Source of the DNA: an uncultured Gammaproteobacteria bacterium
Lineage (GTDB): Bacteria > Patescibacteriota > Microgenomatia > UBA10105 > UBA927
DNA: 64,000 nt
NCBI GenBank assembly: GCA_964445435.1
Contig: CAYUKU010000002.1
Span: forward strand, 47,988 to 111,987
Reading direction: 5' to 3'
The notes below the pieces were generated by a model. It ran no database searches, was not told where the DNA came from, and was given only the letters and a program-made list of their open reading frames with translations. Numbering within the stretch: position 1 is the stretch's first letter; each line of letters begins with the position of its first letter. The position numbers and the translations under genes were made by a program. Positions 45,863 through 64,000 of this stretch are shown here, in pieces.

Positions 45863-45906
45863 TTGACGTATCTAGTATAGCATGTCACACTGGAAGGGAA
45901 ATTCGT

Positions 45907-47597: not shown

Positions 47598-48008
47598 ATG
47601 AAAATGTGGATACTTGCATCCATGCTGTTTTTGGCGAGTGCCATACTGTCTTCGTATATAACGATACGACGGTCTCAATTCGAGTTAGTGGTCAACGATC
47701 AACCCGTCGGCACAACGATTTTTATACAGAGACTTGTGCTTTCGCGCGCAGGGTATATCGTAATCACCCCTCAGACCGGCAGACCGGATCGCGACGTACC
47801 ATCAGTGTCTGACTACATGCCCGCAGGTGTCTACACGGATTTCAACGCAGATATTTACTGGGGCGATGAGCTTGATGTGCCTGCTTCTACACTGGTCACC
47901 GTCCGGATTCACTCGGATAACGGAGATGTATACTATGATCCTGCATTTGATCTGCCGGTTCGCGATAAATTCGGACGTATATATGAAAAAACGATTACAC
48001 TTCAGTAA
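47598..48008 (+). CDS. Small membrane-anchored protein, paralog of 44599-45153
   Basis: Signal anchor MKMWILASMLFLASAIL. The C-terminal domain ...DFNADIYWGDELDVPASTLVTVRIH...DPAFDLPVRDKFGRIYEKTITL aligns with the other family members. Confidence 0.55.
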   Translation: MKMWILASMLFLASAILSSYITIRRSQFELVVNDQPVGTTIFIQRLVLSRAGYIVITPQTGRPDRDVPSVSDYMPAGVYTDFNADIYWGDELDVPASTLVTVRIHSDNGDVYYDPAFDLPVRDKFGRIYEKTITLQ

Positions 48009-49137
48009 CGTACTGGCCCTTTTTTTGTGCGCTGTGGGAGCAGGATTTGTCTTCAGGTTGGTGTTGCATCACCAGGCAGCGTCAAGTACAGGAAGCGCCG
48101 TGCGGAGTTTGTTTGCCTTATGCGCGCGGGCAGAGGTACCGTTTGACTACGATTGCCTGCGTCGGGGAATGCTTCCGTTAGTCACGGAAGATACGCTCAT
48201 GGATGTGTTGGGAGTCCTTCAGGATGTGTTTGCCCAACCCAACGTTTCCCTCAAGACGCACGGCGCGCTGACGTGTCATCCATCCGGTCACGTTGCAGGG
48301 GAGATTGCGGTTGAGAAGGGGATTGAGTTCTCACGCGTGTCCACGCTGTGCGGTGCCATCTGCGACTACGGATGTGTGCATGGAGCGCTTGTAGCGACGC
48401 TACGGCATGACCATGAGTTTTTGGCGAAGGTCGGATCGTTGTGTGATGCGTTTCGGGCATCAGAAACCGTGCGGCAGATGTCAGCCTGTGGTCACGCCGT
48501 CGGCCATGGTCTTGCTGAGGTATTCGCTTCTGATTTTCCAAACGCCCTTGCGTACTGCGACAAATTTCAGAACGAATCTGTCCGCTCTGCATGCGGACAG
48601 GGGAGCATGATGGAGCACTTGATCGGGTTGCCGGACAGGCCAAAAAATATGAACCTCCTGTTGGATGACATACTGTCCTTTTGTGGCGGGCTTGCCGGCC
48701 GGTACAAAGAAGAATGCTTCGATAACGTCGGAACATATGCCGGACACGTGACTCAGGATGTTTTTGAAGCAAAAAACATATGCACACGAGTTCCGTCCTC
48801 CTCACGTATGAAATGCGTTCAGTCGTTGGGCGGTGTCGTTTATTACCAATTTCAGCATTCACCGCTGGCATTGAGCGCCTACTGCACATCGATGGGAGAT
48901 GCAGCAAGTCTTGCATGTATACTCGGGGCCATAGATACGAGCGTCGGCGAGTCCCGCAGCATGGAGTATGGGCGTATCCTCTGCGAGCAAATGAGGGGTA
49001 CAACGCAAAAGCGTTGTTTTGCGTATTACGGCACTCAAGTTGCTTCATCATGGGGAAGCGCAGTGCAAAAAGAAAAGTGCAGCCAGCTCAATAATGAGAA
49101 TGCCAGTGCGTGCAATTCCGGAAAGGATTCGTTATGA
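47983..49137 (+). CDS. Cys/His-rich repeat protein family, member 1 (secreted or anchored)
   Basis: Start MKKRLHFSNVLALFLCAVGAGFV overlaps the upstream ORF by 26 nt. It contains successive ~35-aa units, each with a Cys followed by aromatic/His-Gly: CHPSGHVAG, CGAICDYGCVHG, CGHAVGHG, CGQGSMMEH. Confidence 0.75.
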   Translation: MKKRLHFSNVLALFLCAVGAGFVFRLVLHHQAASSTGSAVRSLFALCARAEVPFDYDCLRRGMLPLVTEDTLMDVLGVLQDVFAQPNVSLKTHGALTCHPSGHVAGEIAVEKGIEFSRVSTLCGAICDYGCVHGALVATLRHDHEFLAKVGSLCDAFRASETVRQMSACGHAVGHGLAEVFASDFPNALAYCDKFQNESVRSACGQGSMMEHLIGLPDRPKNMNLLLDDILSFCGGLAGRYKEECFDNVGTYAGHVTQDVFEAKNICTRVPSSSRMKCVQSLGGVVYYQFQHSPLALSAYCTSMGDAASLACILGAIDTSVGESRSMEYGRILCEQMRGTTQKRCFAYYGTQVASSWGSAVQKEKCSQLNNENASACNSGKDSL

Positions 49138-50036
49138 GGAAGCGGCTGTTGCTTTTGGTTGCGCTTGTCGGAATCATGGGTTTTTCCGCATTAGAAATGG
49201 AACGGCGCAACGAGCATAAGCCGATCATTATGACGAATCGGGACGCAAAACGTGTCCGGGTGCAGATAGACAGAATTATGCGAAACAAAGGTCCAAAGGA
49301 TGCGTACACATATGCGAAAACTCTTTTTCCGTATGACAGATCCTTCGTGTCTCAACATCTGGTGCTCCACATATTTTCGGAACTTGCATATGCCAGATAC
49401 GGGAGACACGGCTTGAATTTTTGCGATAACGATTTCGCGTATGGCTGTCTTCATGGGTTTCTTGCGCAGATTATTGTGCACGAAGGGCTGGATAATGCAA
49501 AAGAGCTCTTCGCAGAATGTCGCAACCAGGCAAATGAGATTGCCTGTCAGCATGGAATCGGCCATGGAATCATGCAGTATCTGGGTGGGCGAAACATCCG
49601 CAGTGGACTTGATACCTGCGTGCGGATCGGTGCTGAAATTTCGGCAAAGGGGTGTTTCGGAGGGGCGTATATGGAGTATCATTTTCCGACGCTCACAACT
49701 GGGGGGGTGGAATCGGCTGTTCCGTTCGATCCGGATAATCCGTATGATATTTGCCCAGGACTCCCGGATTCCTATAAACCGTCCTGCTATTTCCGACTTG
49801 CCGAGTGGTGGGAAGAGATTCTCAGGAAAGATTACAAAAAGATGGGGAATTTATGTTCAAAGATCGGGAACACGGAGTATATGGCACAGTGTCTCCGTGC
49901 CATAGGTGCAACAGCTACGACAACGAGTGGGCATGACAAGAGTTTGGTCGCGTACATATGCAGCCAGGCGACACAATCACCAAACTATCGAGATATATGC
50001 CTTGAGGGATTCGATATGGAGGATCCGGGGAAGTGA
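49134..50036 (+). CDS. Cys/His-rich repeat protein family, member 2
   Basis: ATGA overlap with member 1. Signal anchor MRKRLLLLVALVGIMG. Motifs FCDNDFAYGCLHGF, CQHGIGHG, CFGGAYMEY. Confidence 0.75.
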   Translation: MRKRLLLLVALVGIMGFSALEMERRNEHKPIIMTNRDAKRVRVQIDRIMRNKGPKDAYTYAKTLFPYDRSFVSQHLVLHIFSELAYARYGRHGLNFCDNDFAYGCLHGFLAQIIVHEGLDNAKELFAECRNQANEIACQHGIGHGIMQYLGGRNIRSGLDTCVRIGAEISAKGCFGGAYMEYHFPTLTTGGVESAVPFDPDNPYDICPGLPDSYKPSCYFRLAEWWEEILRKDYKKMGNLCSKIGNTEYMAQCLRAIGATATTTSGHDKSLVAYICSQATQSPNYRDICLEGFDMEDPGK

Positions 50037-50037
50037 A

Positions 50038-51177
50038 TTACGACTTCCAGATGTTGTGGACAAGGACGCCCTCAACGAAATAGTTGTGTTCTGCTCCAGG
50101 GAGGCTCAGGTTGTAAACCGGCGGATTTTCGTCGACCGCGACTACAGATTCTACTGTCACTGCGTTTCCGTCCGGTCCCAGAAGCGTATCGCCCGCTCTA
50201 ACTGCGTCTGCACGAAGCCACAGGCCGCGGTTTGCGACCCAGAGGTTATGGCCTTTCGTGACTCTCAGTGTACCGTTAATAACCAAGTATCCTGCTTCCT
50301 GCGACTCAGGATCTGCAGATGGACTCGGGTGGGCAAGAAGTGCTGTCACTGTGTTGGGAACCAATTTGCCCGTAGAAAGATTGTAGGATAAAACGACGTC
50401 TCCCGGACGGATATCCTGAATTTCCTTCATCGTGCCGTCGGCCATGAGCACCCTAGAACCGGCGAGGAAGCATCCGCCGTAGCTGCCATATGATGCCTGG
50501 CCGTAGCCGTAATAGCCAGCCTGACCGTAACCGTAGCTGTATGAGTAGTAGGCGCTTTGCGCGTAGCCGTAATATGCAGCCTGACCGTAGGCGTAGCTAT
50601 ACGCATAATAATTGCTTTGGCTGTAGGTGTAATAATTGGCCTGACCGTAGGCGTAGTATGTGGACTGAGCGTAGGAGTAGCAGTTGTTGGTCAGTGTTCC
50701 ATCACTCGGATCACAATCAGCCGTCGTTGTTTTCATGAGTCCCATGCGTCGGTAGCCGGATGCAGTGGATGAGCGTCGTGGGTAGTTCGTATCGTCCGTC
50801 CAGTCGTTGACCCAGCCGTCTGCGTCGTTATCATAGATCCAAATGCCGCCGCCGGGGAGAAGCTGTCCGCTTCCGATGGCGATTCCGCCGGAACCGTTGA
50901 TGATAAATTGTCCAGCGACGATCTTCTGACCGGACGAAAGTGTCAGATTATAATTACCTAGCGTGATGGAGCCGGTGTTTGACGTACCCGTTTCAGAGTT
51001 TTGCGGATTATCGACACCATCCACGGTATAGGCAAACGTGCATGATGCGGTAAGCGTGATATTACCATATGTCGTTGTCGGGCGGGCACAGTCAGCCAAA
51101 ACACGCTCCTGTGGCATAAGCACGAAAAGGAAAAGAAGAGCGAGAAACGAGCCGATCGTTGAGAGACCTTTTTTCAT
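50038..51177 (-). CDS. Secreted protein with a Tyr/Gly/Gln-rich repeat tract and a C-terminal Hint (Hedgehog/intein-like, BIL-type) domain
   Basis: Start MKKGLSTIGSFLALLFLFVL (ATG at 51175-51177). Hint block A CFLAGSRVLMADGTMKEIQDIRPGDVV, block B TKGH (TxxH), and a C-terminal ...VEGVLVHN followed by only IWKS. A Tyr-rich low-complexity region lies upstream of the Hint domain. Confidence 0.8.
   Translation of the reverse strand: MKKGLSTIGSFLALLFLFVLMPQERVLADCARPTTTYGNITLTASCTFAYTVDGVDNPQNSETGTSNTGSITLGNYNLTLSSGQKIVAGQFIINGSGGIAIGSGQLLPGGGIWIYDNDADGWVNDWTDDTNYPRRSSTASGYRRMGLMKTTTADCDPSDGTLTNNCYSYAQSTYYAYGQANYYTYSQSNYYAYSYAYGQAAYYGYAQSAYYSYSYGYGQAGYYGYGQASYGSYGGCFLAGSRVLMADGTMKEIQDIRPGDVVLSYNLSTGKLVPNTVTALLAHPSPSADPESQEAGYLVINGTLRVTKGHNLWVANRGLWLRADAVRAGDTLLGPDGNAVTVESVVAVDENPPVYNLSLPGAEHNYFVEGVLVHNIWKS
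50470..50700. repeat. Tandem ~45-nt degenerate direct repeats that encode the Tyr-rich tract (YAYGQA-YY-Y-QS)n
   Basis: Recurring gcctgaccgta(g/a)(g/c)cgtag(c/t)t and gtagccgtaata blocks are visible on the plus strand. Confidence 0.5.
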
Positions 51178-51178
51178 A

Positions 51179-51709
51179 TTATCTGAACGCGAATCCCCCG
51201 TTATATGTGGCGTCCTGCCCGACGAGCGTAAAGTCAAGGTAATACGTCTCCTCATGGGTGTCATCCGCAGTCAGGGTTGCCTGCCAGGTTCCATTCGTAT
51301 CCGTTCCCGCCGTGCGGGTGAAGGTAAGCGGTGTTTTTTTCGTATCGGTATCGAGCCTTGCTGTTACGGAGGTTATGGGAGTAGTGTAGGTTGCCTTAAC
51401 CGTAATGGTTTGTTTGGCTCCGACTTTCACATCCAAAGGATCGAGTGCGAATTCATAGATTTTCGGTCCCACTGCCTTGGGTCCGGGGGCGAAGGTAAAC
51501 GTTTCCTTCCCAGGATTGAGCTTGCGGGGTTTCGGTTTCGGAGTAGGGGTGCCTGATGCCATGGCGATTTCTTTTTCCTCTTTCGGCGTCCCCATGAACC
51601 AATTAGTTCCCTTCTGGGAGACGATATACCATCCGAGCAAAACGACGACAACGATTCCGACAAGGAGAGCAGTATTAGAAGATTGCTTCGTGGACTTGGA
51701 CTTTTTCAC
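51179..51709 (-). CDS. Membrane-anchored hypothetical protein (beta-sandwich-like), co-transcribed upstream of the Hint protein
   Basis: GTG start, TM helix ALLVGIVVVVLLGWYIV, a Pro/Lys-rich linker and a Thr-rich beta-strand domain. Its stop lies 1 nt before the Hint gene start. Confidence 0.55.
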   Translation of the reverse strand: MKKSKSTKQSSNTALLVGIVVVVLLGWYIVSQKGTNWFMGTPKEEKEIAMASGTPTPKPKPRKLNPGKETFTFAPGPKAVGPKIYEFALDPLDVKVGAKQTITVKATYTTPITSVTARLDTDTKKTPLTFTRTAGTDTNGTWQATLTADDTHEETYYLDFTLVGQDATYNGGFAFR

Positions 51710-51841
51710 AATATAAAACCAAAAAGATAGCTTATCCTCATCCTAGAAAGACGGTACATGTTTGTCAATAGGCAATGTAATGTAGGTTACATTCATTTCT
51801 GCGTGGATATAGGAATAAAAAAAATGTAAGATGGTGAGGAC

Positions 51842-53032
51842 ATGAAGTGGAAACGAATGTATTCCGTAGCACTCGTTATTTCTCTCCTGCTTATCGGTAT
51901 TGCAAGGTACGCTCTTTTTCCTCGTGATTCCTATCCCGAAGTGCGGGAGCTTGCCGGAAAATCCCTCGATTTCGGAGAGCTAAGCGTTTTTTTCACCCGT
52001 CTTGCACAGGCGAAGGGCGCTTCATACGCATTTGAGGTTCTCCGTATTGCGACACTCCCGCCCAATACGGACATGCATCTTCTGGGGCACGTGGTGGGCG
52101 ATGAGCTCTATAAACAGCAGGGGATAAACGGCATGAGCGCCTGTACGCAGGATTTCCGCAACGCGTGCTCCCATTCCATCGTTGTCGGATATTTTCTTGC
52201 AAAGGGTGAAGAGGGGTTAGGAGATATTGCCAACGCCTGCAGACGCGCGCCGGGAGGCGCAGGCGCCTACACGATGTGTTTCCACGGTCTTGGTCACGGG
52301 ATACTGGCGGCGGTAGACTATGACCTGCCGCGGGCCGTGTCTCTTTGCCAAAAGACCGGGACGATTCAATACGGATACCGTGAGTCGTCCGAATGCACGA
52401 GCGGTACCGTCATGGAAATTATCTCCGGCGGGTTTCATAACAAGACGCTCTGGGAGAAACAGTCCGCGAAATATCTATCCCTAAGCGAGCCGCTTCTGCC
52501 GTGCACTGCCAGTTACGTGCCAGCAGGATCCAAGCCCCAATGTTTCGAGTATTTGACGCCGCATCTGGTGAAGGCGGCAGGCGGATCGCTGGATGACGGC
52601 GTGCCGGCAGATGAAATCCTTAAAAAGGCATTTGCATATTGCGAACTGCTCGATATCGATATCCAGCGCGCATTCTGCTACCAGGGATTCGGCAAGGAGT
52701 TCATCGTTCTGGTTCATAATCGCGATACGCGGACGCTCGCCAACATGGATGAACGGGAAATGAAAGAAACGTTTCGCCTGTGCGCGCTTGCGGGGCGTGC
52801 GCAGGGGGAGCGGGAGTGTCTGCTTCATGCGATGGATTCGCTTTTCTGGGGAGGAGAGAATGACCCGACAGGCGCAGTCCGGTTTTGCGCGCTTATGGAA
52901 TCAGAGACGCTTGCCAAGGCATGTTACGAGCATCTTGTGGGGGCGACCAGATTTTTCCTGAAAGATCCTCACGCCCGCGATCCCGTGTGTAAGATAATCC
53001 CAGGTGCGTACCAAAGAGACTGTTATGAATAG
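51842..53032 (+). CDS. Cys/His-rich repeat protein family, member 3
   Basis: Signal anchor MKWKRMYSVALVISLLLIG. Motifs HLLGHVVG, CTQDFRNACSHS, CFHGLGHG, CTSGTVME, CFEYL. Confidence 0.75.
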   Translation: MKWKRMYSVALVISLLLIGIARYALFPRDSYPEVRELAGKSLDFGELSVFFTRLAQAKGASYAFEVLRIATLPPNTDMHLLGHVVGDELYKQQGINGMSACTQDFRNACSHSIVVGYFLAKGEEGLGDIANACRRAPGGAGAYTMCFHGLGHGILAAVDYDLPRAVSLCQKTGTIQYGYRESSECTSGTVMEIISGGFHNKTLWEKQSAKYLSLSEPLLPCTASYVPAGSKPQCFEYLTPHLVKAAGGSLDDGVPADEILKKAFAYCELLDIDIQRAFCYQGFGKEFIVLVHNRDTRTLANMDEREMKETFRLCALAGRAQGERECLLHAMDSLFWGGENDPTGAVRFCALMESETLAKACYEHLVGATRFFLKDPHARDPVCKIIPGAYQRDCYE

Positions 53033-54503
53033 AAAAGCCTTCATAAGTATAGTCATGGCAGTGTTGGTTTCGGCGGCGTGGGTGTTTTTGTTCAAGGGTA
53101 TGGTGATGGGCGCAAGACGCGTCATCGAATTGAGGAAAAACGGATATTACCCCAAGAGTCTCACGATTCGGGTCGGGGAGACCGTGACGTTTGTCTCGCA
53201 GACCGGAAAACCGTTCTGGCCCGCCTCAAACGTGCACCCGAGCCATGGATTGTACCCCCAATTCGATCCGCTCAAACCCGTTTCTCCCGATACGCCCTGG
53301 CAGTTTACCTTCGACCGGCCGGGCAAGTGGCGGTTCCATGACCATATTGCGCCTGAGTTTACGGGGACGATTTTCGTTCTGCCCCAGGGGAAAACGACAA
53401 TTGATGCGCTTCCGTGTCAGGAGAAAAATATTGACCTTACCGTCAAGGAGCAGTGCTGGGAGGATGAGCTTGGCGATGCGCTGGAAACGAAAGGGATAAA
53501 AGCGGCCTTCACTGAATTCGTCCGTCTGTATCAGACAGATGCGGATTTCGTAACCACGGGATGTCACGTCCACGCGCACAGAATAGGCGACAAATTTTAT
53601 GAGACCTACGCGTCGGGGTTACAAACGCTTGCCGGTATCGAGCTTCCGCCTGAGACGATGTCGTGCGGGTACGGATTTTTCCATGGATTGTTTGAACACT
53701 TCTTCCGAAAACACCCCAATATCGCGCTTGCCCGGTCCGTTTGCGAAGATTTGGATAAACGCTACAGCAAAACGATCCCTCTTATCCGCATCAACTGTTT
53801 CCATGGAGCCGGTCATGGATTGATCGCCGATCCGCCCGACCCTGCATCATGGGGCAAGCCGCAGGATCTCGTGGGGAAGCCATTGTCGCTGTGTGAGAGC
53901 ATATCTCCTGTTGAGTCTGAAGCATACGCCTGTATGGACGGCGTATTTAACGTCGTTTCAAGCTGGATGGGAGATGCGAAGTACGGTATGTCCATCGACA
54001 TGAAAAATCCGTTTTGGCTTTGCAAGACGCTCAAGTCCACGCAGCAGGAGTCCTGCTATTATGAGCAGATTATGGTGATGAGCGAGTTTGATAACCGCAA
54101 CATGACGACGATTACGAACAAATACATCACACCCATCGTCAACAAGGATATAGCCAATCGGGTGATGTTTTCTCTGGCCGCCTCCCTCATGCAGAAGGAC
54201 GTTGTCCTGCCGGATCAGACGCACATGATCCGTGCATGCCGCAGTGTGCCAGGGTATCTACAAAAGAGTTGCCTGGAGGGAGTGGTCAACGGATTTAAGG
54301 GTCACGGTGAACCGGGGAAAGAATACGTGAAAATGCTTGCGTTTTGCCAGAATTCGCTTCTCACCCGCGTCGAGCGTGATACGTGTTACCTCTCGCTTAT
54401 TGATGCGATATGGGATTTGAATCCACAGCAGGAAGCGCTTGGGGTCTGCCAAAAGATACCGGATCAGTATAGAGCGCAGTGCGAGCAATGGGAGAAACGG
54501 TGA
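53004..54503 (+). CDS. Cys/His-rich repeat protein family, member 4, with an N-terminal cupredoxin-like domain
   Basis: TM helix followed by LTIRVGETVTFVSQTGKPFWPASNVHPSH...WQFTFDRPGKWRFHDHIAPEFTGTIFV, an amicyanin/plastocyanin-like strand pattern in which the ligand Cys is replaced by Asp. The family repeats follow: CHVHAHRIG, CGYGFFHG, CFHGAGHG. Confidence 0.75.
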   Translation: MRTKETVMNRKAFISIVMAVLVSAAWVFLFKGMVMGARRVIELRKNGYYPKSLTIRVGETVTFVSQTGKPFWPASNVHPSHGLYPQFDPLKPVSPDTPWQFTFDRPGKWRFHDHIAPEFTGTIFVLPQGKTTIDALPCQEKNIDLTVKEQCWEDELGDALETKGIKAAFTEFVRLYQTDADFVTTGCHVHAHRIGDKFYETYASGLQTLAGIELPPETMSCGYGFFHGLFEHFFRKHPNIALARSVCEDLDKRYSKTIPLIRINCFHGAGHGLIADPPDPASWGKPQDLVGKPLSLCESISPVESEAYACMDGVFNVVSSWMGDAKYGMSIDMKNPFWLCKTLKSTQQESCYYEQIMVMSEFDNRNMTTITNKYITPIVNKDIANRVMFSLAASLMQKDVVLPDQTHMIRACRSVPGYLQKSCLEGVVNGFKGHGEPGKEYVKMLAFCQNSLLTRVERDTCYLSLIDAIWDLNPQQEALGVCQKIPDQYRAQCEQWEKR

Positions 54504-55675
54504 TTATGGAAAAAAACGTGTTTCCGTTTAAGACAATCAGCATTTTCATTATCGGGGTTATCGTTCTTGTGGAAGTCGGACTGATCGTCTCTGAAAGGCT
54601 TGCGAAATCACCCTGCGCGGGGAAAGAAGGAACGGAGCTGAAAAACTGCTGGGAGACTGTTGTAACCGGTCACCTCAAAAAAGGAGACATATCCGGGGCA
54701 TTCGAGTCGCTTGCAACTCTTTATGAAACGACGCCGGCTTTGGGTGAAACATGCCATAGTCTGACCCATGAAATCGGACGGTCGGCGTATGAACTTTTCT
54801 CACGCGGGGTCGAATTTGATATTACCGCCAAAACTGCATACTGTTCTTACGGCTTCTACCATGGGTTCATGGAGGAGCTTGTCATACGACGTGCGGACAT
54901 GAAGCTTGCGCGGGAGTTTTGCGCGTACGTCGACAAGCAACTGGCAAACGTAAGTCCTGACGTGACGCTTCAGTGTTATCACGGTATCGGGCACGGGACG
55001 GTCAATAATCACGATCCGCGAACATGGGGGGAGCCGCAGCGTCTCATCGATCCCGCGTTGGCTCTGTGTGAACAGGTGGCAACCAATCAGGAGGAGCTCT
55101 CCCGGTGTGCGACCGGTGTGTACAACGGGTTGTCTATTTTTTATGCAACAGGGGAGTATGGACTTCTCCTCGATACGAAGGATCCGGTGGGTGTGTGCAG
55201 GCGGCAGAAGGTAGAGTATCAGGATGCCTGTTATGTGAGCATGAATACGCTTCTTTTACAGGTTGCCAATTATGATCTACGCAAAGCAGTCTCGTATATC
55301 GAGAACATACCGGATGACGCCATCGCCCAGCATACGATGATAAATCTCGCGTCCCCCATAGGGACGAGAAATCTGGGTACATTGGATCACAGCGAGACCA
55401 TCGGAGTCTGCAGGGCACTGCCAAGCCGCCTGAAACTGGCGTGCATCCAGGGGTATGCGTTCGGGTTTCTCGAACATGGGGAACCGGAGAAAGAATACAG
55501 AAAACCTCTCGCATTCTGCGGATCCCAACAGCTTGTCAAAGAAGAGCAAAAAGCATGTTTTGAGTATATTTTGTCGTATCTGCCAAGATGGTACGCCAAA
55601 GAGAAAGTTTCGGGGATTTGCCAAACGGTTTCATCAGAGTGGCGTGATTATTGTGAAAAACAAATACAAAATTAG
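54479..55675 (+). CDS. Cys/His-rich repeat protein family, member 5
   Basis: Motifs CHSLTHEIG, CSYGFYHGF, CYHGIGHG, CATGVYNG. Confidence 0.75.
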   Translation: MRAMGETVIMEKNVFPFKTISIFIIGVIVLVEVGLIVSERLAKSPCAGKEGTELKNCWETVVTGHLKKGDISGAFESLATLYETTPALGETCHSLTHEIGRSAYELFSRGVEFDITAKTAYCSYGFYHGFMEELVIRRADMKLAREFCAYVDKQLANVSPDVTLQCYHGIGHGTVNNHDPRTWGEPQRLIDPALALCEQVATNQEELSRCATGVYNGLSIFYATGEYGLLLDTKDPVGVCRRQKVEYQDACYVSMNTLLLQVANYDLRKAVSYIENIPDDAIAQHTMINLASPIGTRNLGTLDHSETIGVCRALPSRLKLACIQGYAFGFLEHGEPEKEYRKPLAFCGSQQLVKEEQKACFEYILSYLPRWYAKEKVSGICQTVSSEWRDYCEKQIQN

Positions 55676-57062
55676 CGGGATCGTCGGTATAATTCTGTTT
55701 CTTTTGGGAATCGGGGGATTAAGCATCCGACATGCGTATACCAAAACCATTACGCTTGATGATACCGGGTTCCATCCGAAAGTCGCTCTCGTTGTCAGGG
55801 GTGAAAGCATCACATTTCGAACTTCGCGGGGGAAATACTTCTGGCCAGCGAGCGACCCGCATCCGATTCATGCGACATATCCTGAATTTGACCCAAAAGA
55901 GGCCCTGAAAAAAGACGCCGTATGGACGTTTACATTCGACCGTGTCGGGATATGGAGCTATCATGACCACTTGGCTCCGCAGTTTGGCGGACGGATTATC
56001 AGTCTGGGATGGGACGCCAGGGAGTTCGCGCAACTGGTGCAGTCGGCCCGGAAAAAAATCTCCGGTTTCATCCCGCTGACTGTCACAGAGATGGAGGCGT
56101 ATTTCGGACAGTGCGGGGGACTCAATAAGGATTGCTGGGATCCCGTCTTTACTTCCATCGTAGAAACCAAAGGAACCAAACAAGCCCTGGAGACGGTTTC
56201 ATACTTGAGACAGAAATATCCGGAGTTTGCCAATTACTGCCATCAGTATACTGACTTCATCGGTGAGATATCGTATTGGAATATCCTCCCCAAAAAGCGA
56301 CTCCCGCAGTTTAACGCTGCTCTTGCAGGTCAATGCAGCAGCGGGTATATGCACGGATATATGGGTGAATTTGTTTCGCACGGGAGCATCGGACAGGGGA
56401 TTGCGTTTTGTGATGCGTTATTCAGACTCGCCCCTGACCACGAAGTGACTGCCGAGTGTTATCGCGGGGTCGGAAACGGCCTTGCCTTCCGGTTCGGACT
56501 CACGTCATGGAACGACGAGGATGCGATTATCAACGAGGCGCTTGGGGTGTGTGAATCGGTACGGGAGAAAAAACTTTGCGAACAGGGAGTCATCATCGGT
56601 CTTGATCATATGTACTTCGGCGTGCACGGGTTTCAATTGCGGATGGATCCCAAAGACCCGTTTGCAGTATGCCGTCGGGTAAAAACGGAACTTACTGATG
56701 ATTGTTACGAGCAGTTGTCCGACGGATTTTTCGCGTTTGTGGAATCTGATTTGGATAAAGCGATGCCGTATGTAAAAAAACTTCCACCCAAACAGGCAGC
56801 AATCGTCATCGCAAAGATCATACAAATTCCGTATGAACTTGAGTCGTTTGGCGCGAATGGATACGCGAGGATTGTCGCATGGTGTCGCAGCGTGCCGTAT
56901 GGTCTTGGCCAGACGTGTTTACGAGGGTTTATCGGAAAATTGAAAACAATCGATGTGGATTATAATGGGCATACGACAATAGCAGAGAATTTTTGCCGCA
57001 TGCCGATACTTACCGCGGAAGAAGAGTGGTTTTGCCGTAGGGTCGTCTATGAACAAATATAA
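55644..57062 (+). CDS. Cys/His-rich repeat protein family, member 6, with an N-terminal cupredoxin-like domain
   Basis: Probable GTG start at 55644 or 55653, overlapping the upstream stop. Cupredoxin-like segment ITFRTSRGKYFWPASDPHPIH...WTFTFDRVGIWSYHDHLAPQFGGRII. Family repeats follow: CHQYTDFIG, CSSGYMHGY, CYRGVGNG. Confidence 0.7.
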   Translation: MIIVKNKYKISGIVGIILFLLGIGGLSIRHAYTKTITLDDTGFHPKVALVVRGESITFRTSRGKYFWPASDPHPIHATYPEFDPKEALKKDAVWTFTFDRVGIWSYHDHLAPQFGGRIISLGWDAREFAQLVQSARKKISGFIPLTVTEMEAYFGQCGGLNKDCWDPVFTSIVETKGTKQALETVSYLRQKYPEFANYCHQYTDFIGEISYWNILPKKRLPQFNAALAGQCSSGYMHGYMGEFVSHGSIGQGIAFCDALFRLAPDHEVTAECYRGVGNGLAFRFGLTSWNDEDAIINEALGVCESVREKKLCEQGVIIGLDHMYFGVHGFQLRMDPKDPFAVCRRVKTELTDDCYEQLSDGFFAFVESDLDKAMPYVKKLPPKQAAIVIAKIIQIPYELESFGANGYARIVAWCRSVPYGLGQTCLRGFIGKLKTIDVDYNGHTTIAENFCRMPILTAEEEWFCRRVVYEQI

Positions 57063-58254
57063 TTCGTATCGCAGCATTTTCTGGTGGCTTGTTTTTGCCA
57101 TAGGCATTGCGCTTGCCGTTCTCTATCGGATGAATTGGTACGTGCCTACGCCCGGAAGATCTCCGACAGGGGAGGCTGAGAACGTACTGGAGCAGTGCAA
57201 AGGAGCGCAATATCGCCCTGCCTGTTACGAAGCAGAGATTCCGAAGCTCATGGCATATATGTCTATGGAGGATGCGTTCGCCGTAACAAAACTGGTGAGC
57301 GACAAGGATCCGCAGTTTGCCAACTGTCATGTGGTGGCACACAAATTGACCAGTCTTGAGACGCGGAAAGACCCGTCGCGCTGGAAAGATGTGCTTCTTC
57401 GGTGCCCTTCTTCCGTGTGTAATTACGGATGTCTCCATGGGTCAATGATTGAGCGGTTCCGAAGTGAAACGCTTACCGATGAGCAAGTGGAGAAAGTGTT
57501 GCCCGATATAATGGATTTGTGTGAGCCACGGGAGGGCTTCGTTCCATCAGCAATCGACAAAACCATGTGTTATCACGGCATCGGGCATCTTGCTATGTAT
57601 ATGACCGGCGGCGATCCGGCGCGCGCTATACCCGTGTGCGAGAAAACAGCGGTGCGCAGTGATGGGGCAAACTATCTTTCAACATGCATTGAAGGCGTAT
57701 TTATGACGGTATTTCAGAGCGTGGATTCTGAGGATTTTGCACTTGTGCGGTGGATACGGCCGGAGAAAGGGGACGTGCGGAGTTTCTGCTCCCGATACGG
57801 GCAATATTGGCAAATGTGCCGTCGCGAGTCGTTTCCGCTTTTTGACGATGAGTCGATGAAAAAGGCCAGCGGACTTGAGAAATTCTGTTCCTATGCCACG
57901 ACCCCGCAGGATATGAGAAGCTGTTATTGGGGCGGGATCAATGTCATCAGCACCCGGTTTTTCGAGTTGGGCGGCGGCATTTCTGATGTCGATTCGTACT
58001 GCAAAGGTTTTAGGGTTGAGACACAGGGATTATGCTATGGAGGTGTCGCAATGCGCCTTGTCCAGATAGATCCGATAAGAAATGTACAAATTGCAGACAC
58101 CATTTGTGCTCTGGCAAGAGATGCTGCCCGATTGGAGTGTTACAACAACTTGTTGTATTACGCGACGTTTAGCTTCAACACAGGAAGCCAGGAGTTTCGG
58201 ACGTATTGTGCACAGTTATCGGGTGACTGGAAAGAAGCATGCCTAAACCAATGA
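57049..58254 (+). CDS. Cys/His-rich repeat protein family, member 7
   Basis: Motifs CHVVAHKL, CNYGCLHG, CYHGIGHL, CIEGVFM. It overlaps the previous gene by 14 nt. Confidence 0.75.
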   Translation: MNKYNSYRSIFWWLVFAIGIALAVLYRMNWYVPTPGRSPTGEAENVLEQCKGAQYRPACYEAEIPKLMAYMSMEDAFAVTKLVSDKDPQFANCHVVAHKLTSLETRKDPSRWKDVLLRCPSSVCNYGCLHGSMIERFRSETLTDEQVEKVLPDIMDLCEPREGFVPSAIDKTMCYHGIGHLAMYMTGGDPARAIPVCEKTAVRSDGANYLSTCIEGVFMTVFQSVDSEDFALVRWIRPEKGDVRSFCSRYGQYWQMCRRESFPLFDDESMKKASGLEKFCSYATTPQDMRSCYWGGINVISTRFFELGGGISDVDSYCKGFRVETQGLCYGGVAMRLVQIDPIRNVQIADTICALARDAARLECYNNLLYYATFSFNTGSQEFRTYCAQLSGDWKEACLNQ

Positions 58255-59432
58255 AATCAACAAAAATATTCGTTACGCTCGGCTTGTTTGGCGTGGTTGC
58301 CGTCGGACTTGGGATATTTTTTTTCGTTTCGAAGGAAAAGGCGCCGAGCCCATCGCAGCTTTCGTCGTGGGGGAAAAAGTGCGAGGGTACATCTGATACC
58401 GGAAAGGTGGCGTGCTGGGAGGATCTGACACGGGAGGTCGTCAAAAAAGAGGGAATTGCCCCAGCGTTTGATCTTATTTCCTATTTATATGAGAAGAATC
58501 CTGAGTTTGCCGAACCATGTCATGCGATGGTTCATATCATCGGTCAGGTGGCCTACAGTCAGTTTCGCGCAACCGGGAATGTCGATTTATCCGAGAAAAA
58601 CGCGTTTTGTGCATTCGGGTTCTACCACGGGTTTATGGAAATGCTTGTCGCCAGAAAAGGAACAATTGCCGAGGCCCGGGAGTTTTGCCGGTACGTCGAT
58701 ACCAAACTGGGGGATATAACGCCGGGGGCGAAGTTGGGCTGTTACCATGGGATCGGGCACGGATCGACAGATATCCACAATCCGCAATATTTCGGCAATG
58801 AACGCGCAGTCATTGCGCCTGCGCTTGCCAACTGCGAGGCGTTTGCGACGGATGATGAGATGCGCAAGCTCTGCGTGACGGGGATATTTGACTCAGTCGC
58901 GCTTGCGTACTACAACAACGGGGAAAACGGATTCGTTATGAAAAAAGATGACCCGCTCTGGCTTTGCCGTGAACAGCCCGAGAGGTACAAGGAGTCGTGC
59001 TACTTGGATATGATGCCTGCGATGATCTGGCTGGGAGACCATGACCTGACCCGAGCGGGGCCGATGGTACTGGCGCATGCAGAGCGCAGCTATCGAAAGA
59101 TTGCGCTTCGGGCGCTTGCCGAAAACAGCGTGCGGTTTGTCATCCACAAAAGGCCGGTCGAAGACTATCTGCCTTATTGCAGATCGCTTGAGGCAGGGGA
59201 GAGTCTGGCCTGTGTCAGCGGTCTAGGGGTGGGGATTATGCAGTTTGGGCGGCCGGGTGAGGAATATAAAGATGCCATTGCGTTTTGTGTGTCGGATAGG
59301 CTTAATACTAATGAGCAGGACAGCTGTATGAAAGATGTACTTCAGTACGTCAGTCAGCGCTATGACCGAAAGAAATCCGCATCCATTTGTCGTACGGTTG
59401 ATGCACAATTTGAGGGATATTGCCGTGAATAG
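58239..59432 (+). CDS. Cys/His-rich repeat protein family, member 8
   Basis: Motifs CHAMVHIIG, CAFGFYHGF, CYHGIGHG, CVTGIFD. Confidence 0.75.
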   Translation: MPKPMKSTKIFVTLGLFGVVAVGLGIFFFVSKEKAPSPSQLSSWGKKCEGTSDTGKVACWEDLTREVVKKEGIAPAFDLISYLYEKNPEFAEPCHAMVHIIGQVAYSQFRATGNVDLSEKNAFCAFGFYHGFMEMLVARKGTIAEAREFCRYVDTKLGDITPGAKLGCYHGIGHGSTDIHNPQYFGNERAVIAPALANCEAFATDDEMRKLCVTGIFDSVALAYYNNGENGFVMKKDDPLWLCREQPERYKESCYLDMMPAMIWLGDHDLTRAGPMVLAHAERSYRKIALRALAENSVRFVIHKRPVEDYLPYCRSLEAGESLACVSGLGVGIMQFGRPGEEYKDAIAFCVSDRLNTNEQDSCMKDVLQYVSQRYDRKKSASICRTVDAQFEGYCRE

Positions 59433-60615
59433 GACGAAACTTTTGGTCGGAATTATTCTCGTTATCCTTTTGGAGATAGGAGTCCTTTTCGTGCGCAGTC
59501 TGGGCGGTTTTATGAGGCCGCAACAGGTCGCTTCCGCGGTATCGCGTGTTCTTGCCGCGTGCGACAAGGAGGAATATCACCCTGCCTGTTATGATCGGGA
59601 AATCCCAAAACTCATGGACCGTTTCTCCATGGAAGAAACGTTTGCCATTACCAAAGAGATCCAACTGAAAGATCCGACCTATACCTATTGTCATGTATTG
59701 GGTCACGCGCTTTCCTCGCAAGAGACGAAGAAGGATTCATCCAAATGGCAGGATGTGATAACCCGTTGCCCGAGCGGCGTATGTTCAAACGGGTGTGTCC
59801 ATGGGGCATTCCAGGAGCGGTTCAGAACCGACGTGTTATCCCAAGAGCAGATTGCCGAGATCAAGCCGCAGCTTCTCACCGTATGCAAGCCGCGCGGATT
59901 GTGGAATCCGACCGGCATGGAGCAGGCAACCTGTTACCACGCGATGGGACATCTTCTTATGTATATAACGGGTGCAGAGATAAACCAGTCGCTTGCGCTG
60001 TGCGATGAGCTTGCGAAACCCAAAGAGGAAAACGGGTATGATTTCCACCCTATCTGCTACGACGGCGTTTTCATGCAGATGTTTCAGCCGCTTGAGCCGG
60101 AAGATATTGCACTGGTACAGGGCAAACAACCGACGCGAGCGACGGTCCGTACCTTTTGCGACCGGTTTTCCGGGCAGGCAAAAGTATCCTGCGTGACGGA
60201 ATCCTGGCCGCTTTTCATTGCCGAACTTGAGAATCCAGAGTTTCTCACGTCCTTCTGCGGTCAACTTGCGCCGGATATGAGACACAGGTGTTTTACGGGC
60301 ATGTTTTATATCCTCGTCGTGCAGAATCGCTTCGATCTCACAAGAATGCGCAATTATTGTGATCAATTACCGGAAAATACAGCAGCATTATGCTATGCAA
60401 GCACTGCATCACGGCTTGTAGAGACAGATTGGAACAACATCACGAAGGCGGCTAACTGGTGCACCGAAACCGGGAGCGAGTCGGGAAAAAAGGCGTGTTT
60501 CGAGGAGCTTGTTTACTACGCTTCATATAACTTCCACAGAAAATCGTCTGAATTTTTTGCCTTATGTAACGCGCTTCCCGACCCATGGAAGCAGTCTTGT
60601 CTCGATGGTGAGTAA
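59401..60615 (+). CDS. Cys/His-rich repeat protein family, member 9
   Basis: Motifs CHVLGHAL, CSNGCVHG, CYHAMGHL. The start (ATG 59401 or GTG 59425) overlaps the previous stop. Confidence 0.7.
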   Translation: MHNLRDIAVNRTKLLVGIILVILLEIGVLFVRSLGGFMRPQQVASAVSRVLAACDKEEYHPACYDREIPKLMDRFSMEETFAITKEIQLKDPTYTYCHVLGHALSSQETKKDSSKWQDVITRCPSGVCSNGCVHGAFQERFRTDVLSQEQIAEIKPQLLTVCKPRGLWNPTGMEQATCYHAMGHLLMYITGAEINQSLALCDELAKPKEENGYDFHPICYDGVFMQMFQPLEPEDIALVQGKQPTRATVRTFCDRFSGQAKVSCVTESWPLFIAELENPEFLTSFCGQLAPDMRHRCFTGMFYILVVQNRFDLTRMRNYCDQLPENTAALCYASTASRLVETDWNNITKAANWCTETGSESGKKACFEELVYYASYNFHRKSSEFFALCNALPDPWKQSCLDGE

Positions 60616-61597
60616 GCCAATGCCTATGAAAACATCTTTACGAAAAATTCTTCTTTTAGGCGCGGCGGTGATCATTGTGGCCGCTATCATGACCCGTATG
60701 AGCAGTAAGCCAGAACCCCTGGAGACCGATCCGCACAAGGCAGTGACGCAACTGTCGGGAATCATGAAAAAGCAAGGGATTCTCGCAGCGCAGAAGTTTT
60801 TCCTGTCAAATTTCTTTTCCTATTCGGATAATAACCGGCATTATCTGGGGCATTTCATCGGGGAGCATATCTATAAGTCGTTCGGGCTTGCGGGTCTCAA
60901 AAACTGCTATTCCCATATAGAATTTGGGTGTATCCACGGTTTTCTCTTAAGCGGGTATCTCAAAGAGGGGAAACAGTTTCTCTGGGATGTCGTGGAGGAG
61001 TGTAAGAAGGATCTGCCCGAAGGGTGTATGCACGGACTGGGGCACGCGTTTCTTCTCACGCGCGGATACGATGTGCCAAGTTTGCGCTCCAGCCTGTCTG
61101 ATTGCAGCAGTCTGGATGTGCCGGAAGGCATGAAAGAGCAGTGCATCCAGGGGGTGTATATGGAATATAATGACCGGTTTCTCATCGACGGATCATCGTC
61201 TGTCAATTCCTTCGTCCCGCGCGATTTCAACCCCAAAAAACCTCTCGCCCCATGTGATACGGAACCGATCGACCTGCAACCGATCTGCTACCGCGAACTG
61301 GTACTGTATTGGGCAAACGTTTCCGGAATAACGAGAGGTCAGATGACCGACTACTGTCGCAGCATACCCAATCCGAAAGGGAAGTACGAATGTTTCTGGA
61401 GTTTCGGCGGGTATGTGGCGGGAGACGACAGCATCGTGGAGCCCTCAGTTGCCGTATGTCAGGAGCTTGCCGCAGACAATCTCAGTCCGTGTGTTCGCGG
61501 CGCGCTTATGTCGGCTGCGTTCCAGAGCCAGAAATCCAGGCAGGCATTTTGCAGTCAGATCCCGCAATCCCTACAAAAGGAGTGTGAGACATGGTAA
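60605..61597 (+). CDS. Cys/His-rich repeat protein family, member 10
   Basis: Motifs YLGHFIG, CYSHIEFGCIHG, CMHGLGHA. It overlaps the previous gene by 11 nt. Confidence 0.7.
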   Translation: MVSKPMPMKTSLRKILLLGAAVIIVAAIMTRMSSKPEPLETDPHKAVTQLSGIMKKQGILAAQKFFLSNFFSYSDNNRHYLGHFIGEHIYKSFGLAGLKNCYSHIEFGCIHGFLLSGYLKEGKQFLWDVVEECKKDLPEGCMHGLGHAFLLTRGYDVPSLRSSLSDCSSLDVPEGMKEQCIQGVYMEYNDRFLIDGSSSVNSFVPRDFNPKKPLAPCDTEPIDLQPICYRELVLYWANVSGITRGQMTDYCRSIPNPKGKYECFWSFGGYVAGDDSIVEPSVAVCQELAADNLSPCVRGALMSAAFQSQKSRQAFCSQIPQSLQKECETW

Positions 61598-62604
61598 AGC
61601 ATGCGCATTTGGGAGCGCTCGTCATCGTTGGCTTGGTCGCCGCAGTTTGGCTCGCGGCCCCGCAGGTTGACCGACTCAAGGCGTCACTTGTGAGTACGCC
61701 GTTTCAGCTGAGTCTTGCGCGAAAAGAAATAGACGCCTCCATAAAAATTCATGGAGCCCAAAAAACGTATGACCGGATAAAGGAGATCTTACAAGAGAAA
61801 GACAGCATACGGCAGCATACCGTGGCTCATATATTTGGGGAACTTCTGTACCGCGAAAATGGGCTGAGCGGGATCACCGTGTGTGATAGCAGTTTCGGCT
61901 TCGGCTGTTACCATAGCTTCTTCGGGAAAGCGGTAAGCGAGGGAGGGGAGGGGATCGTCCCTGAGCTTGACCGTCTGTGCGTCGCGTCATTTGGCGTTAT
62001 GGGATTGGGCTGCGCCCACGGCATCGGACACGGGCTTGGTGAATACTTCGGCCCGTCCCGGGTGGACGAACAGCTTCGCCTGTGTGAGGGGCTTTCATGG
62101 AAAGGGAAGTATATGGGGTGCCAAAGCGGTGTATTTATGGAATACAACACACCGGTTTCCACTGACGGTGAAACGGCAATGAGCAAGCCCAGACCCTGGG
62201 ATGAGCGCGCTCCCTATGGGAGTTGCTTGAGCGTTGCTGAAAAATTCCGCCCTTCGTGTTTCCTGGAAATTGCCGGTTGGTGGGAGCAGGTTATCCCACG
62301 CCAATACCCGAAGATGGGGGATTTGTGCGCGAGGCTCAGAAGCGTATCTGATCGGGAGAGTTGTTTTCTGGGGATTGGGTACAATGTCGTGCAGTCCCAT
62401 GAGTACGATACCGCGAGCGTAAAGGAAATTTGCGCAACGTTTCCTTCAGATGGCGAGCTTTTGTGCCGGGCCGGCGCATCATGGAGCTTCTTTGCGAATC
62501 CGGATTACCGCCAAGCCGCGTCCGAGTTTTGCCGCATGGATACCCAGGAGAAAACAGCGTTGTGTCAAAAGAAATCCGATTTACTCGGAAACGGATCGTT
62601 ATGA
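61591..62604 (+). CDS. Cys/His-rich repeat protein family, member 11
   Basis: ATGGTAA overlap with the upstream gene. Motifs HTVAHIFG, CDSSFGFGCYHSF, CAHGIGHG. Confidence 0.75.
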   Translation: MVKHAHLGALVIVGLVAAVWLAAPQVDRLKASLVSTPFQLSLARKEIDASIKIHGAQKTYDRIKEILQEKDSIRQHTVAHIFGELLYRENGLSGITVCDSSFGFGCYHSFFGKAVSEGGEGIVPELDRLCVASFGVMGLGCAHGIGHGLGEYFGPSRVDEQLRLCEGLSWKGKYMGCQSGVFMEYNTPVSTDGETAMSKPRPWDERAPYGSCLSVAEKFRPSCFLEIAGWWEQVIPRQYPKMGDLCARLRSVSDRESCFLGIGYNVVQSHEYDTASVKEICATFPSDGELLCRAGASWSFFANPDYRQAASEFCRMDTQEKTALCQKKSDLLGNGSL

Positions 62605-64000
62605 AGAGAAAACAGCGTCTCATGAGTGTCTTCCTTGTGCTTCTGGGGTGTGCGGGAGCGCTTTTTTGGGCCCTCTGGTGGCCAAAAACGTACACGATAA
62701 CGGTGCGCACAAACGGATTTACCCCAGATGCCCTGACCATCCCGGCAGGCAGTACGGTCCGGTTTGCGGGGAAAGGGGATCGGGCATTCTGGCCGGCCTC
62801 AAACTTCCACCCGTCTCACAAACTGTATCCCGAGTTCGATGCGCGGACGCCTATCGCTGCGACCGCAAGCTGGAGTTTCACCTTCGATACGCCCGGCATA
62901 TGGCGATTCCACGACCATCTCAACAGCCGTAGCGTCGGGACTATCACCGTGCGTCAAACGCCATTCGTGAAAACGAAAAACCTCTGCCAGGGCGACATTG
63001 CGTTACTTCCGGTGAAAGTGCAGGAAGGCTGCTGGATACAGGAGATTGAGTCGATTCTTGCCGCACAAGGGCTTGACCGGGCGTTTGAACGGTTTGGGCA
63101 GCTGTATGAAACGAAGCCGGCGTTCTCCTCGGACTGTCACGACGTGACGCACCTTCTGGGAGAAGCTGCATACCGCGCATACGTACAAGACGGCGCCATC
63201 GTGACGTCTCAAAAAACGTCGTTTTGCGGGTATGGATTCTATCACGGGTTTATCGAGGCGCTCCTGTTTACAACCGGGAATTTCAATCAGGCCAAATCGT
63301 ATTGCCGGGACGTCCAAAAGGAGCTTGCAAAAACCATCGTTTCTCCTAATGCAATTTATGCGTGTTACCACGGATTGGGACACGGAACGTTTGATACCCA
63401 AAATTTTTCCCAGTGGGGGAATGATGAAAAAATGCTTACCGGTGCGATCAACGTATGTGAAGAGGTAACCCGAGGGGAGGAAGAAGAGCTTGTGAAACAA
63501 TGCGCAAGTGGTGTTTTCAATGCTCTTGCCAACGCGTACGGGAACAAGTCGTATAACCTTTCGTATGACGATCGGCGGCCGTTTCGGTCCTGCGAAATAC
63601 AGACGAATATCCGCTATAAGGAAGCCTGTTATCGCGAGGTGGCCTCAGCGTACATACGCACGACATTCCCTCGCAGGGAAGAAGCGCTTCTGACCATCTC
63701 TCATATACCCGATGCCGTAGGTGCCGATGCCACGATGTTTGCATATATGTCTGATGAGGCCCGCCTTGGTATAGATACCATGACATCGGAAAAATTTGCG
63801 GATGTCTGTCGGCGCTTGCCGTCTGACCATTTGCGACGGTCATGCGTGGAAGGTGTCGTTGCCGGGTTGTTTCTCTGGGGGAAGCCGGGCGCCGAGGAGG
63901 AAAAGGCAATCGCTTTTTGTCGGCAGCCTGCAATCTCCAGGCTCCACAAAGAGGCGTGTTACAGCTATGTCCTGCCCCGGCTGCGAACGATTTATCCCTC
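62601..64000 (+). CDS. Cys/His-rich repeat protein family, member 12, with an N-terminal cupredoxin-like domain (3' partial, runs off the window)
   Basis: This ORF is absent from the supplied track because it has no stop codon in the window. It was read manually in the frame of the ATG at 62601 (ATGA overlap with the upstream gene). Cupredoxin-like segment VRFAGKGDRAFWPASNFHPSH...WSFTFDTPGIWRFHDHLNSRSVGTITV. Family repeats follow: CHDVTHLLG, CGYGFYHGF, CYHGLGHG. Confidence 0.65.
   Translation, partial: MKRKQRLMSVFLVLLGCAGALFWALWWPKTYTITVRTNGFTPDALTIPAGSTVRFAGKGDRAFWPASNFHPSHKLYPEFDARTPIAATASWSFTFDTPGIWRFHDHLNSRSVGTITVRQTPFVKTKNLCQGDIALLPVKVQEGCWIQEIESILAAQGLDRAFERFGQLYETKPAFSSDCHDVTHLLGEAAYRAYVQDGAIVTSQKTSFCGYGFYHGFIEALLFTTGNFNQAKSYCRDVQKELAKTIVSPNAIYACYHGLGHGTFDTQNFSQWGNDEKMLTGAINVCEEVTRGEEEELVKQCASGVFNALANAYGNKSYNLSYDDRRPFRSCEIQTNIRYKEACYREVASAYIRTTFPRREEALLTISHIPDAVGADATMFAYMSDEARLGIDTMTSEKFADVCRRLPSDHLRRSCVEGVVAGLFLWGKPGAEEEKAIAFCRQPAISRLHKEACYSYVLPRLRTIYP

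Follow-up and report, generated by a model that had tools for sequence, protein, structure and literature searches.

A cupredoxin domain without blue-copper ligands and with a conserved His/Asp set accompanies arrays of Cys/His-rich proteins in Patescibacteria

Introduction

Blue-copper proteins such as amicyanin and plastocyanin bind their metal in a type-1 site composed of four ligands, namely an N-terminal His at the start of strand 4, a Cys thiolate on strand 7, and a C-terminal His and an axial Met in a C-x(2-4)-H-x(2-4)-M loop. Multicopper oxidases and copper nitrite reductase use positions beside this Cys for further coppers. In Fet3p, the His next to the type-1 Cys binds T3 copper (Cys484/His485), and His413 and His416 lie on one strand (PMC5796215); in copper nitrite reductase, His134 next to Cys135 binds T2 copper (PMC7049163). 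Copper binding also survives the replacement of the Cys by Asp. The C112D mutation turns azurin into a type-2 copper protein (PMC8915257 and its ref 9), both the C112D and the C112D/M121L variants still bind copper (PMC8915257), and D118 of FtrB is required for Cu2+ binding (PMC11966278). Here we describe a cupredoxin-like domain, termed CUP, which is encoded three times in a stretch of 64,000 nucleotides (positions 47,988 to 111,987 of contig CAYUKU010000002.1, assembly GCA_964445435.1), hereafter called the window. The three copies belong to members m4, m6 and m12 of a tandem array of paralogous genes, where CUP precedes a Cys/His-rich domain, termed CH.

CUP has the fold of amicyanin and plastocyanin, has lost all four type-1 ligands and carries four other His and one Asp that are nearly invariant across the family. 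We propose, with a probability of roughly 55%, that it forms a non-blue, His-ligated and probably copper-containing site, which serves as a metal or redox accessory to surface-located CH proteins. The resemblance to cupredoxins is already present in databases, where NCBI and JGI name some homologs 'cupredoxin domain-containing protein' or 'plastocyanin'. Judged from the sequences, the new elements would be the Cys-less His4-Asp variant and its tie to CH arrays, and we found no literature description of either in Patescibacteria.

Results

Three copies of a cupredoxin domain

The initial annotation placed an additional domain between the signal anchor and the Cys/His region of members 4, 6 and 12, and the translations bear this out, with a domain length of ~90 aa. 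The gene for m4 (53004..54503, plus strand) has a GTG start at 53004, with an in-frame ATG at 53025 as an alternative start, and its product is 100% identical to database protein P0155 (NCBI source). It begins with a hydrophobic signal anchor, AFISIVMAVLVSAAWVFLF (53037..53093), which is preceded by Lys/Arg residues and would adopt an N-in/C-out topology. The anchor is followed by CUP at residues 37-126 (53112..53381) and then by CH. The other two genes, also on the plus strand, are m6 (55644..57062), which encodes the anchor, CUP (55737..56006), a long linker and a divergent CH, and m12 (62601..64000), which encodes the anchor, CUP (62685..62954) and CH and continues past the window end. The three CUP copies are 43-53% identical to one another (E 1e-20 to 2e-29, each searched against the window by tblastn), which rules out chance similarity among them (E <=1e-20). 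The window contains no further copy, as no other tblastn match falls below E 0.5.

Two motifs characterize the copies. In m4 they are WPASNVHPSH (53217..53246), which contains His78 and His81, and FHDH, which contains His112-Asp113-His114 (53337..53345). The corresponding motifs are WPASDPHPIH (55842-55871) and YHDH (H-D-H at 55962-55970) in m6, and WPASNFHPSH (62790-62819) and FHDH (H-D-H at 62910-62918) in m12. The consensus pattern proposed earlier is correct for these motifs as written, and m6 departs from it at three places (ALVV for L(T/A)I, SIT for TV and RVG for.PG.).

An AlphaFold2 model of the m4 CUP segment, built on an alignment of seven sequences, has a mean pLDDT of 81.9 and contains eight strands and one short helix. 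Compared with solved structures by Foldseek, the model matches amicyanin and plastocyanin at E ~1e-6 with TM scores of 0.72-0.79. In line with this, a profile of the CUP family retrieves amicyanin from the PDB sequences at E=7e-6, and phmmer matches the m12 copy to plastocyanin 1b3i and to the H-C-H segment of ascorbate oxidase. The predicted structure is a Greek-key beta-sandwich of ~8 strands that superposes on solved cupredoxins. The structural and profile matches make the cupredoxin assignment, previously drawn from strand order and motif layout, secure, and no unrelated fold emerged.

Membership of the curated Pfam family PF13473 (Cupredoxin_1) is marginal. The gathering cut-off of 27 bits is not reached by m12 (24.5 bits, E=2.8e-5) or m4 (13.2 bits), and m6 gives no hit. 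Searches of seven array members against Pfam and NCBIfam returned sub-threshold PF13473 matches for the N-terminal domain only and nothing for CH. The window copies score below the cut-off, yet a precomputed PF13473 hit is present on about one third of the full-length homologs, so the CUP family lies at the edge of this model.

Loss of the type-1 ligands and gain of a His/Asp set

Three independent alignments place an Asp of m4, m6 and m12 in the column of the type-1 Cys, as the initial annotation had recognized. The CUP segment W-R-F-H-D-H-L-A-P-x-F-T-G aligns with Y-H-C92-T-P-H95-P-F-M98-R-G of amicyanin, the loop lengths being identical, and W-R-F-H-D-H-L-N aligns with W-A-F-H-C-H-I-E of ascorbate oxidase. 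In addition, the same profile matches 29 classical Cys-type repeats (A-P-H-T-V-T-A ... Y-x-C-x-x-H-P-x-M-x-G-T) from multi-repeat proteins. The Cys thiolate ligand is therefore absent from the window copies. The remaining ligands are absent as well: the column of the N-terminal His at the start of strand 4 is occupied by Phe in all three copies, that of the C-terminal His by Ala or Asn, and that of the axial Met by Phe or Ser. With every type-1 ligand gone, the site differs from classical blue copper, as had been suspected.

The new residues occupy two regions. The HPxH pair sits in an insertion of 7-8 residues after strand 4 (WPAS-N/D-x-H-P-x-H), and the other two His lie on either side of the former Cys position, in H-D-H. 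The 29 classical repeats contain neither the WPAS...HPxH insertion nor the two flanking His. By these alignments, the family exists in two discrete states, and the window copies have exchanged the whole type-1 set for HPxH and H-D-H. CUP thus resembles amicyanin and plastocyanin in its fold, its strand order, the landmarks G-x-T-V-x-F, F-D and G-x-Y-x-Y...G-x-I-x-V, and a C-terminal ligand loop as long as that of amicyanin. It is unlike them in lacking all four ligands, in carrying the HPxH insertion and the two His beside the Cys position, in its membrane tether and in its fusion to a solenoid of 370 aa.

These observations bear on the reading of CUP as an ordinary plastocyanin-type blue-copper electron carrier, for instance a donor to NirK. 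JGI names several family members 'plastocyanin', and two Patescibacteria genome papers assume cupredoxin/plastocyanin electron transfer to NirK (PMC5581439, PMC12931201). This reading is almost certainly wrong for CUP, since none of the four type-1 ligands is present in the window copies, the Cys is absent in 138 of the 139 domains described below, and CUP is tethered to or encoded beside CH proteins, not redox enzymes. Blue-copper electron transfer of the classical kind is unlikely because all four ligands are missing, and we rejected the classical electron carrier as a candidate on this ground.

Conservation and taxonomic range of the family

Searched with the family profile, 1.84 billion cluster representatives yielded 9,550 proteins at E<=1e-3, 4,509 at E<=1e-10 and 464 at E<=1e-30, part of the weaker matches being classical cupredoxins. 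Among the best 150 proteins there are 194 instances of the domain, in which the Cys column holds Asp (157), Cys (29) or Asn (7). In this independent representative set, 148-153 of the 157 Asp-type instances retain any given one of the four His.

Scanning the GTDB representatives, one genome per species, gave 380 matching stretches, 79 of which were analysed together with one metagenome locus, making 80 loci with 139 CUP domains. The scan pattern demanded the first His and the Pro of HPxH (xHP[STI]) in one domain per locus and leaves the H-D-H count unbiased; the counts from these loci depend on our own ORF calling and HMM thresholds. Columns 68, 71 and 102 are His in 139/139 domains, including both positions of the HPxH motif, and column 104 is His in 138/139. 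Column 103 holds Asp in 131 domains, Asn in 6, Gly in 1 and Cys in 1. Asp or Asn at this column is thus found in 137 of the 139 domains, and the five-residue set is complete in the same number. The His cluster first noted in the window is therefore a conserved feature of the homologs. The surrounding columns vary more: column 61 is mostly Phe (109 domains; His 13, Tyr 7), at column 109 there are 62 Phe, 33 Tyr, 10 Leu and 6 Met, and column 106, three positions after the Asp, is variable (A/S/R/N/D).

Such conservation has to be explained by any reading without a metal. CUP could be a metal-free, cupredoxin-like spacer or interaction module whose His are structural or form a pH-sensitive interface, and the copper-less domains of SufI/FtsP and CyoA are precedents for this. 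We consider it improbable. The five polar residues are kept in nearly every domain at an overall identity of only ~45-50%, for which packing alone is a poor explanation, and the joint appearance of four His at the very place from which the classical ligands have vanished points to a replacement site.

The CUP family is almost entirely patescibacterial and common in these ultra-small bacteria. Record titles and source names are nearly all from Patescibacteria, including Parcubacteria, Paceibacterota, Kaiser-, Sung-, Doudna-, Nomura- and Yanofskybacteria and others. Labels such as Gammaproteobacteria, Methanosarcinales or Rubrobacteraceae on a few bins could not be verified. Two tandem CUP domains occur in P0007 (227 aa), P0009 (275 aa) and P0005/P0006/P0008 (936-1082 aa), usually both with the full His/Asp set.

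The CH domain and its linkage to CUP

CH comprises ~370 aa, is predicted with a pLDDT of 96 to form an alpha-solenoid, and belongs to an abundant Patescibacteria family for which there is no Pfam model. We found no close solved relative. In m4, CH occupies 53415..54500 on the plus strand and contains 16 Cys. Across 240 aligned CH domains, neighbouring conserved Cys columns come and go together as pairs (for example 238/250, r=0.71; 311/324, r=0.82; 345/356, r=0.85), which is the pairwise covariation expected if disulfides staple the helical hairpins. A comparison may be drawn with the cysteine-rich Sel1-like repeat proteins of Helicobacter, secreted proteins in which a Cys pair apparently staples each helical-hairpin repeat. 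The likeness would lie in these staples, which on the CH side are supported by the pairwise covariation. In addition, five His (H188, H192, H227, H267 and H271 in m4) are 96-98% conserved in all four CH subfamilies of the same alignment, and point to a second metal site or an active site. The m6 protein deviates from this arrangement. Its linker measures ~45 aa, three of the five CH His are lost (CHQYTD, CYRGVGNG; 56238-56264, 56457-56480) and the last Cys pair is gone, with the His/Asp set of its CUP domain intact.

Tblastn against the window divides the array into four CH subfamilies, A (m4/5/6/8/12), B (m7/9), C (m2/10/11) and D (m1/3), and all three CUP-bearing members fall in subfamily A. 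The remaining members (m1, m2, m3, m5, m7, m8, m9, m10 and m11) have no CUP. The 80 loci, in which tandem CH arrays are the rule, contain 97 ORFs with CUP fused ahead of CH, 42 stand-alone CUP ORFs and 172 CH-only ORFs. When each CH domain is assigned to its most similar window paralog, 91 domains of subfamily A carry CUP and 29 do not, compared with 0 and 64 in subfamily B, 2 and 55 in subfamily C, and 4 and 31 in subfamily D. The fusion to a subset of the family, first proposed for the window, thus extends across genomes, with 91/97 fusions going to subfamily A. Most stand-alone copies are also close to this partner, and a CH gene is present within 3 kb of 33/40 stand-alone CUP genes. The pattern of fusion and adjacency argues for a functional link between CUP and CH. 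H-D-H and the first Cys of CH are usually 19-26 residues apart (median 23), which leaves ~10-12 residues as a linker between the two domains.

Two neighbour families in other genomes

Two further families, neither of which is found in the window, occur at the 80 loci. The first, fam1, comprises proteins of ~175 aa in 26/80 loci (for example L020 6264-6788 and L001 8401-8949, with 24 further loci) and is encoded directly downstream of 22/40 stand-alone CUP genes. The signal peptide of its members ends in Ala (position -1), and the mature protein is predicted to begin with a His that is invariant. One Glu, two Asp and one Trp are invariant as well, and the C-terminus carries an anchor that ends in an Arg tail. 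Comparison with Pfam, NCBIfam and PDB sequences gave no match beyond a weak Ig/filamin-like similarity, and all 150 database homologs are named 'hypothetical'. Histidine-brace copper proteins, among them CopC, YcnI and the lytic polysaccharide monooxygenases, are marked by an N-terminal His freed by signal cleavage. By this analogy, fam1 would be a copper-suggestive neighbour, which we treat as a lead. The second family, fam3, comprises anchored proteins of ~180 aa located inside the CH/CUP arrays of other genomes (16 loci; for example L033 1380-1910 and L010 374-883). They show a Cys-containing cupredoxin-like pattern, N-x-D-x-x-x-H ... G-x-Y-G-Y-x-C ... G-x-x-x-V.

The array and its surroundings in the window

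All-against-window tblastn defines the array as 12 paralogous plus-strand genes, m1 to m12, at 47974..64000, and a comparable array is present in 79 other genome loci. The translated proteins have 300-500 aa, with a hydrophobic N-terminal anchor ahead of the Cys/His-rich body. Neighbouring array genes overlap by 4-30 nt at stop and start (53004/53032, 54479/54503, 57049/57062, 58239/58254, 61591/61597 and 62601/62604), and these overlaps between consecutive genes suggest one operon with translational coupling. The array is broken between m2 and m3 by two minus-strand genes at 50038-51709, one for a PT-HINT/Hint-domain protein that contains a long repeat rich in Tyr, Gly, Ala, Gln and Ser (50038-51264) and one for an anchored Ig-like protein of 176 aa (51179-51709).

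Immediately ahead of the array lie genes for three small DUF7282 proteins with anchors (44599-45153; 45856-46323, a weak match; 47598-48008), which alternate with those for two minus-strand leucine-rich-repeat proteins (45158-45862 and 46324-47052). At the opposite end of the upstream region, a very long plus-strand ORF (3-8051, >=2682 aa) enters from the window start; it contains a Fic/DOC domain and a YkoP-domain match below threshold (26.8 bits against a cut-off of 27). Besides these DUF7282, leucine-rich-repeat and Hint-domain proteins and the giant Fic-domain ORF, the window encodes sugar-nucleotide enzymes, glycosyltransferases and PMT_2/TPR proteins.

Discussion

CUP is best explained as a true amicyanin/plastocyanin-type cupredoxin whose blue-copper site has been dismantled. 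The old type-1 pocket would be plugged by the Phe residues at columns 61 and 109, and the side chains of H-D-H, located on a beta-strand, would point away from it. The four His may then converge into one nitrogen-ligated, non-blue metal site, most likely for copper, on the outer face beside the filled-in pocket. This proposal follows from the use of the positions flanking the type-1 Cys for type-2 and type-3 coppers in multicopper oxidases and copper nitrite reductase. The HPxH insertion comes after the adjacent strand 4, and the equivalent region of multicopper oxidases likewise holds type-2/type-3 His, for instance His413 and His416 of Fet3p (PMC5796215). The Asp, sometimes Asn, could act as a ligand or as a hydrogen-bonding residue of the second shell. 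The occasional exchange of Asp for Asn suggests the latter, with Asp113 orienting a His and not serving as an obligatory ligand.

The anchor together with the paired Cys suggests an extracellular topology. The anchor would hold CUP outside the cell, with one subfamily of disulfide-stapled, His-rich CH solenoids as its partner, either fused or encoded nearby. Judged solely from gene fusion and adjacency, CUP might load or unload metal by hand-over at the five-His site of CH, act as a redox relay, or carry a catalytic copper on the solenoid scaffold.

Among the close counterparts of such a site are the engineered azurins C112D and C112D/M121L (type-2 and 'type zero' copper), which like CUP combine Asp in place of the Cys (column 103) with a hydrophobic side chain in place of the axial Met (column 109). 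These variants retain both classical His, whereas CUP has lost both and would use other His positions. CUP is also similar to domain 3 of multicopper oxidases and to copper nitrite reductase, in that His flank the type-1 Cys position and a His-rich stretch follows the strand-4 ligand position. It is unlike them in lacking the type-1 site, and the spacing of HPxH from strand 4 differs. A third comparison, with the EfeO-type Cup domains named in the initial annotation, did not hold. These are Cys-less cupredoxins that serve in iron uptake, and FtrB has a D-x-x-H copper motif and an acidic iron site (E84/E86/E93); CUP has no acidic cluster, its position three residues after the Asp is A/S/R/N/D, and four different His are invariant. 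Moreover, the partner of FtrB/EfeO Cup domains is the Ftr1/EfeU permease, and the neighbours of CUP are CH, fam1 and fam3 proteins, not permeases. Membership of the FtrB/EfeO group was therefore rejected, as both the motif and the genomic partners differ.

Copper appears to be the most likely metal because of the ancestry of the fold, the copper binding of Cys-to-Asp azurin, the role of the corresponding Asp in FtrB and the position of fam1 beside stand-alone CUP genes. Several points weigh against this view of CUP. The four arguments for copper do not fix the metal, since sets composed entirely of His and Asp also bind Zn, Ni or Fe. Many Patescibacteria inhabit anoxic, sulfidic water in which copper is scarce. 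A search of the window context for copper-handling genes found none, and the neighbours are glycan-synthesis genes instead. Asn replaces Asp in 6/139 domains, which argues against Asp as an obligatory charged ligand. The convergence of the four His is a prediction from alignment and strand geometry, and confidence is lowest in the HPSH loop of the model, which was built on a shallow alignment and has a pLDDT <50 at residues 42-45. In m6, finally, the CUP site is intact with three of the five CH His lost, so coupling between CUP and CH would not be strictly in cis.

Some of these points would be accommodated if the site bound Zn, Ni, Fe or Mn and CUP were a metal-scavenging or structural zinc module and not a redox centre. 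Three or four His with one Asp also make up the zinc centre of Cu,Zn superoxide dismutase and many other zinc sites; the lack of copper genes nearby in the window and the tolerance of Asn in place of Asp would fit as well. We nevertheless regard a metal other than copper as unlikely, though worth serious consideration. The ancestry of the fold is copper-binding, multicopper oxidases and nitrite reductase bind copper through the positions of the flanking His (PMC5796215; PMC7049163), and cupredoxins with Asp in place of Cys bind Cu2+ (PMC11966278; PMC8915257).

A bolder version of the copper proposal can also be considered. CUP could be a natural copper centre, of a type known to date only from engineered proteins or within larger enzymes, in which the blue site has been erased and half of the His cluster of a multicopper oxidase is left, a bi- or trinuclear site being completed across a CUP-CUP or CUP-CH interface. 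Tandem CUP-CUP proteins, runs of adjacent CUP genes and the five invariant His of CH fit with this arrangement. As CUP is a single domain, only four His are available, compared with eight for a trinuclear cluster, and we identified no second cupredoxin domain or partner supplying the remaining His, each window protein having one CUP. We hold this arrangement to be rather doubtful, and keep the simpler His-ligated, probably copper, site as the preferred reading.

The cupredoxin fold is the textbook example of a scaffold tuned to a single metal site, and here a large natural family has dropped all four blue-copper ligands together and gained four other invariant His. CUP may be a natural equivalent of the engineered azurins with Asp in place of Cys, and likewise of the His motifs found in multicopper oxidases. 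It marks one subfamily of abundant, uncharacterised, His-rich and probably disulfide-stapled surface solenoids, which are encoded in arrays of as many as twelve genes, and provides, through metal binding, a testable handle on the role of these CH arrays. Annotation pipelines give the name 'plastocyanin' to many CUP proteins. If the NirK-donor 'plastocyanins' of the two genome papers (PMC5581439, PMC12931201) belong to the CUP family, that step of the models would lack a blue-copper site. Should a copper centre at a domain interface prove true, the 'plastocyanins' of published Patescibacteria electron-transport models would be something else, and the arrays would encode a new, Patescibacteria-specific class of cell-surface copper oxidases or reductases.

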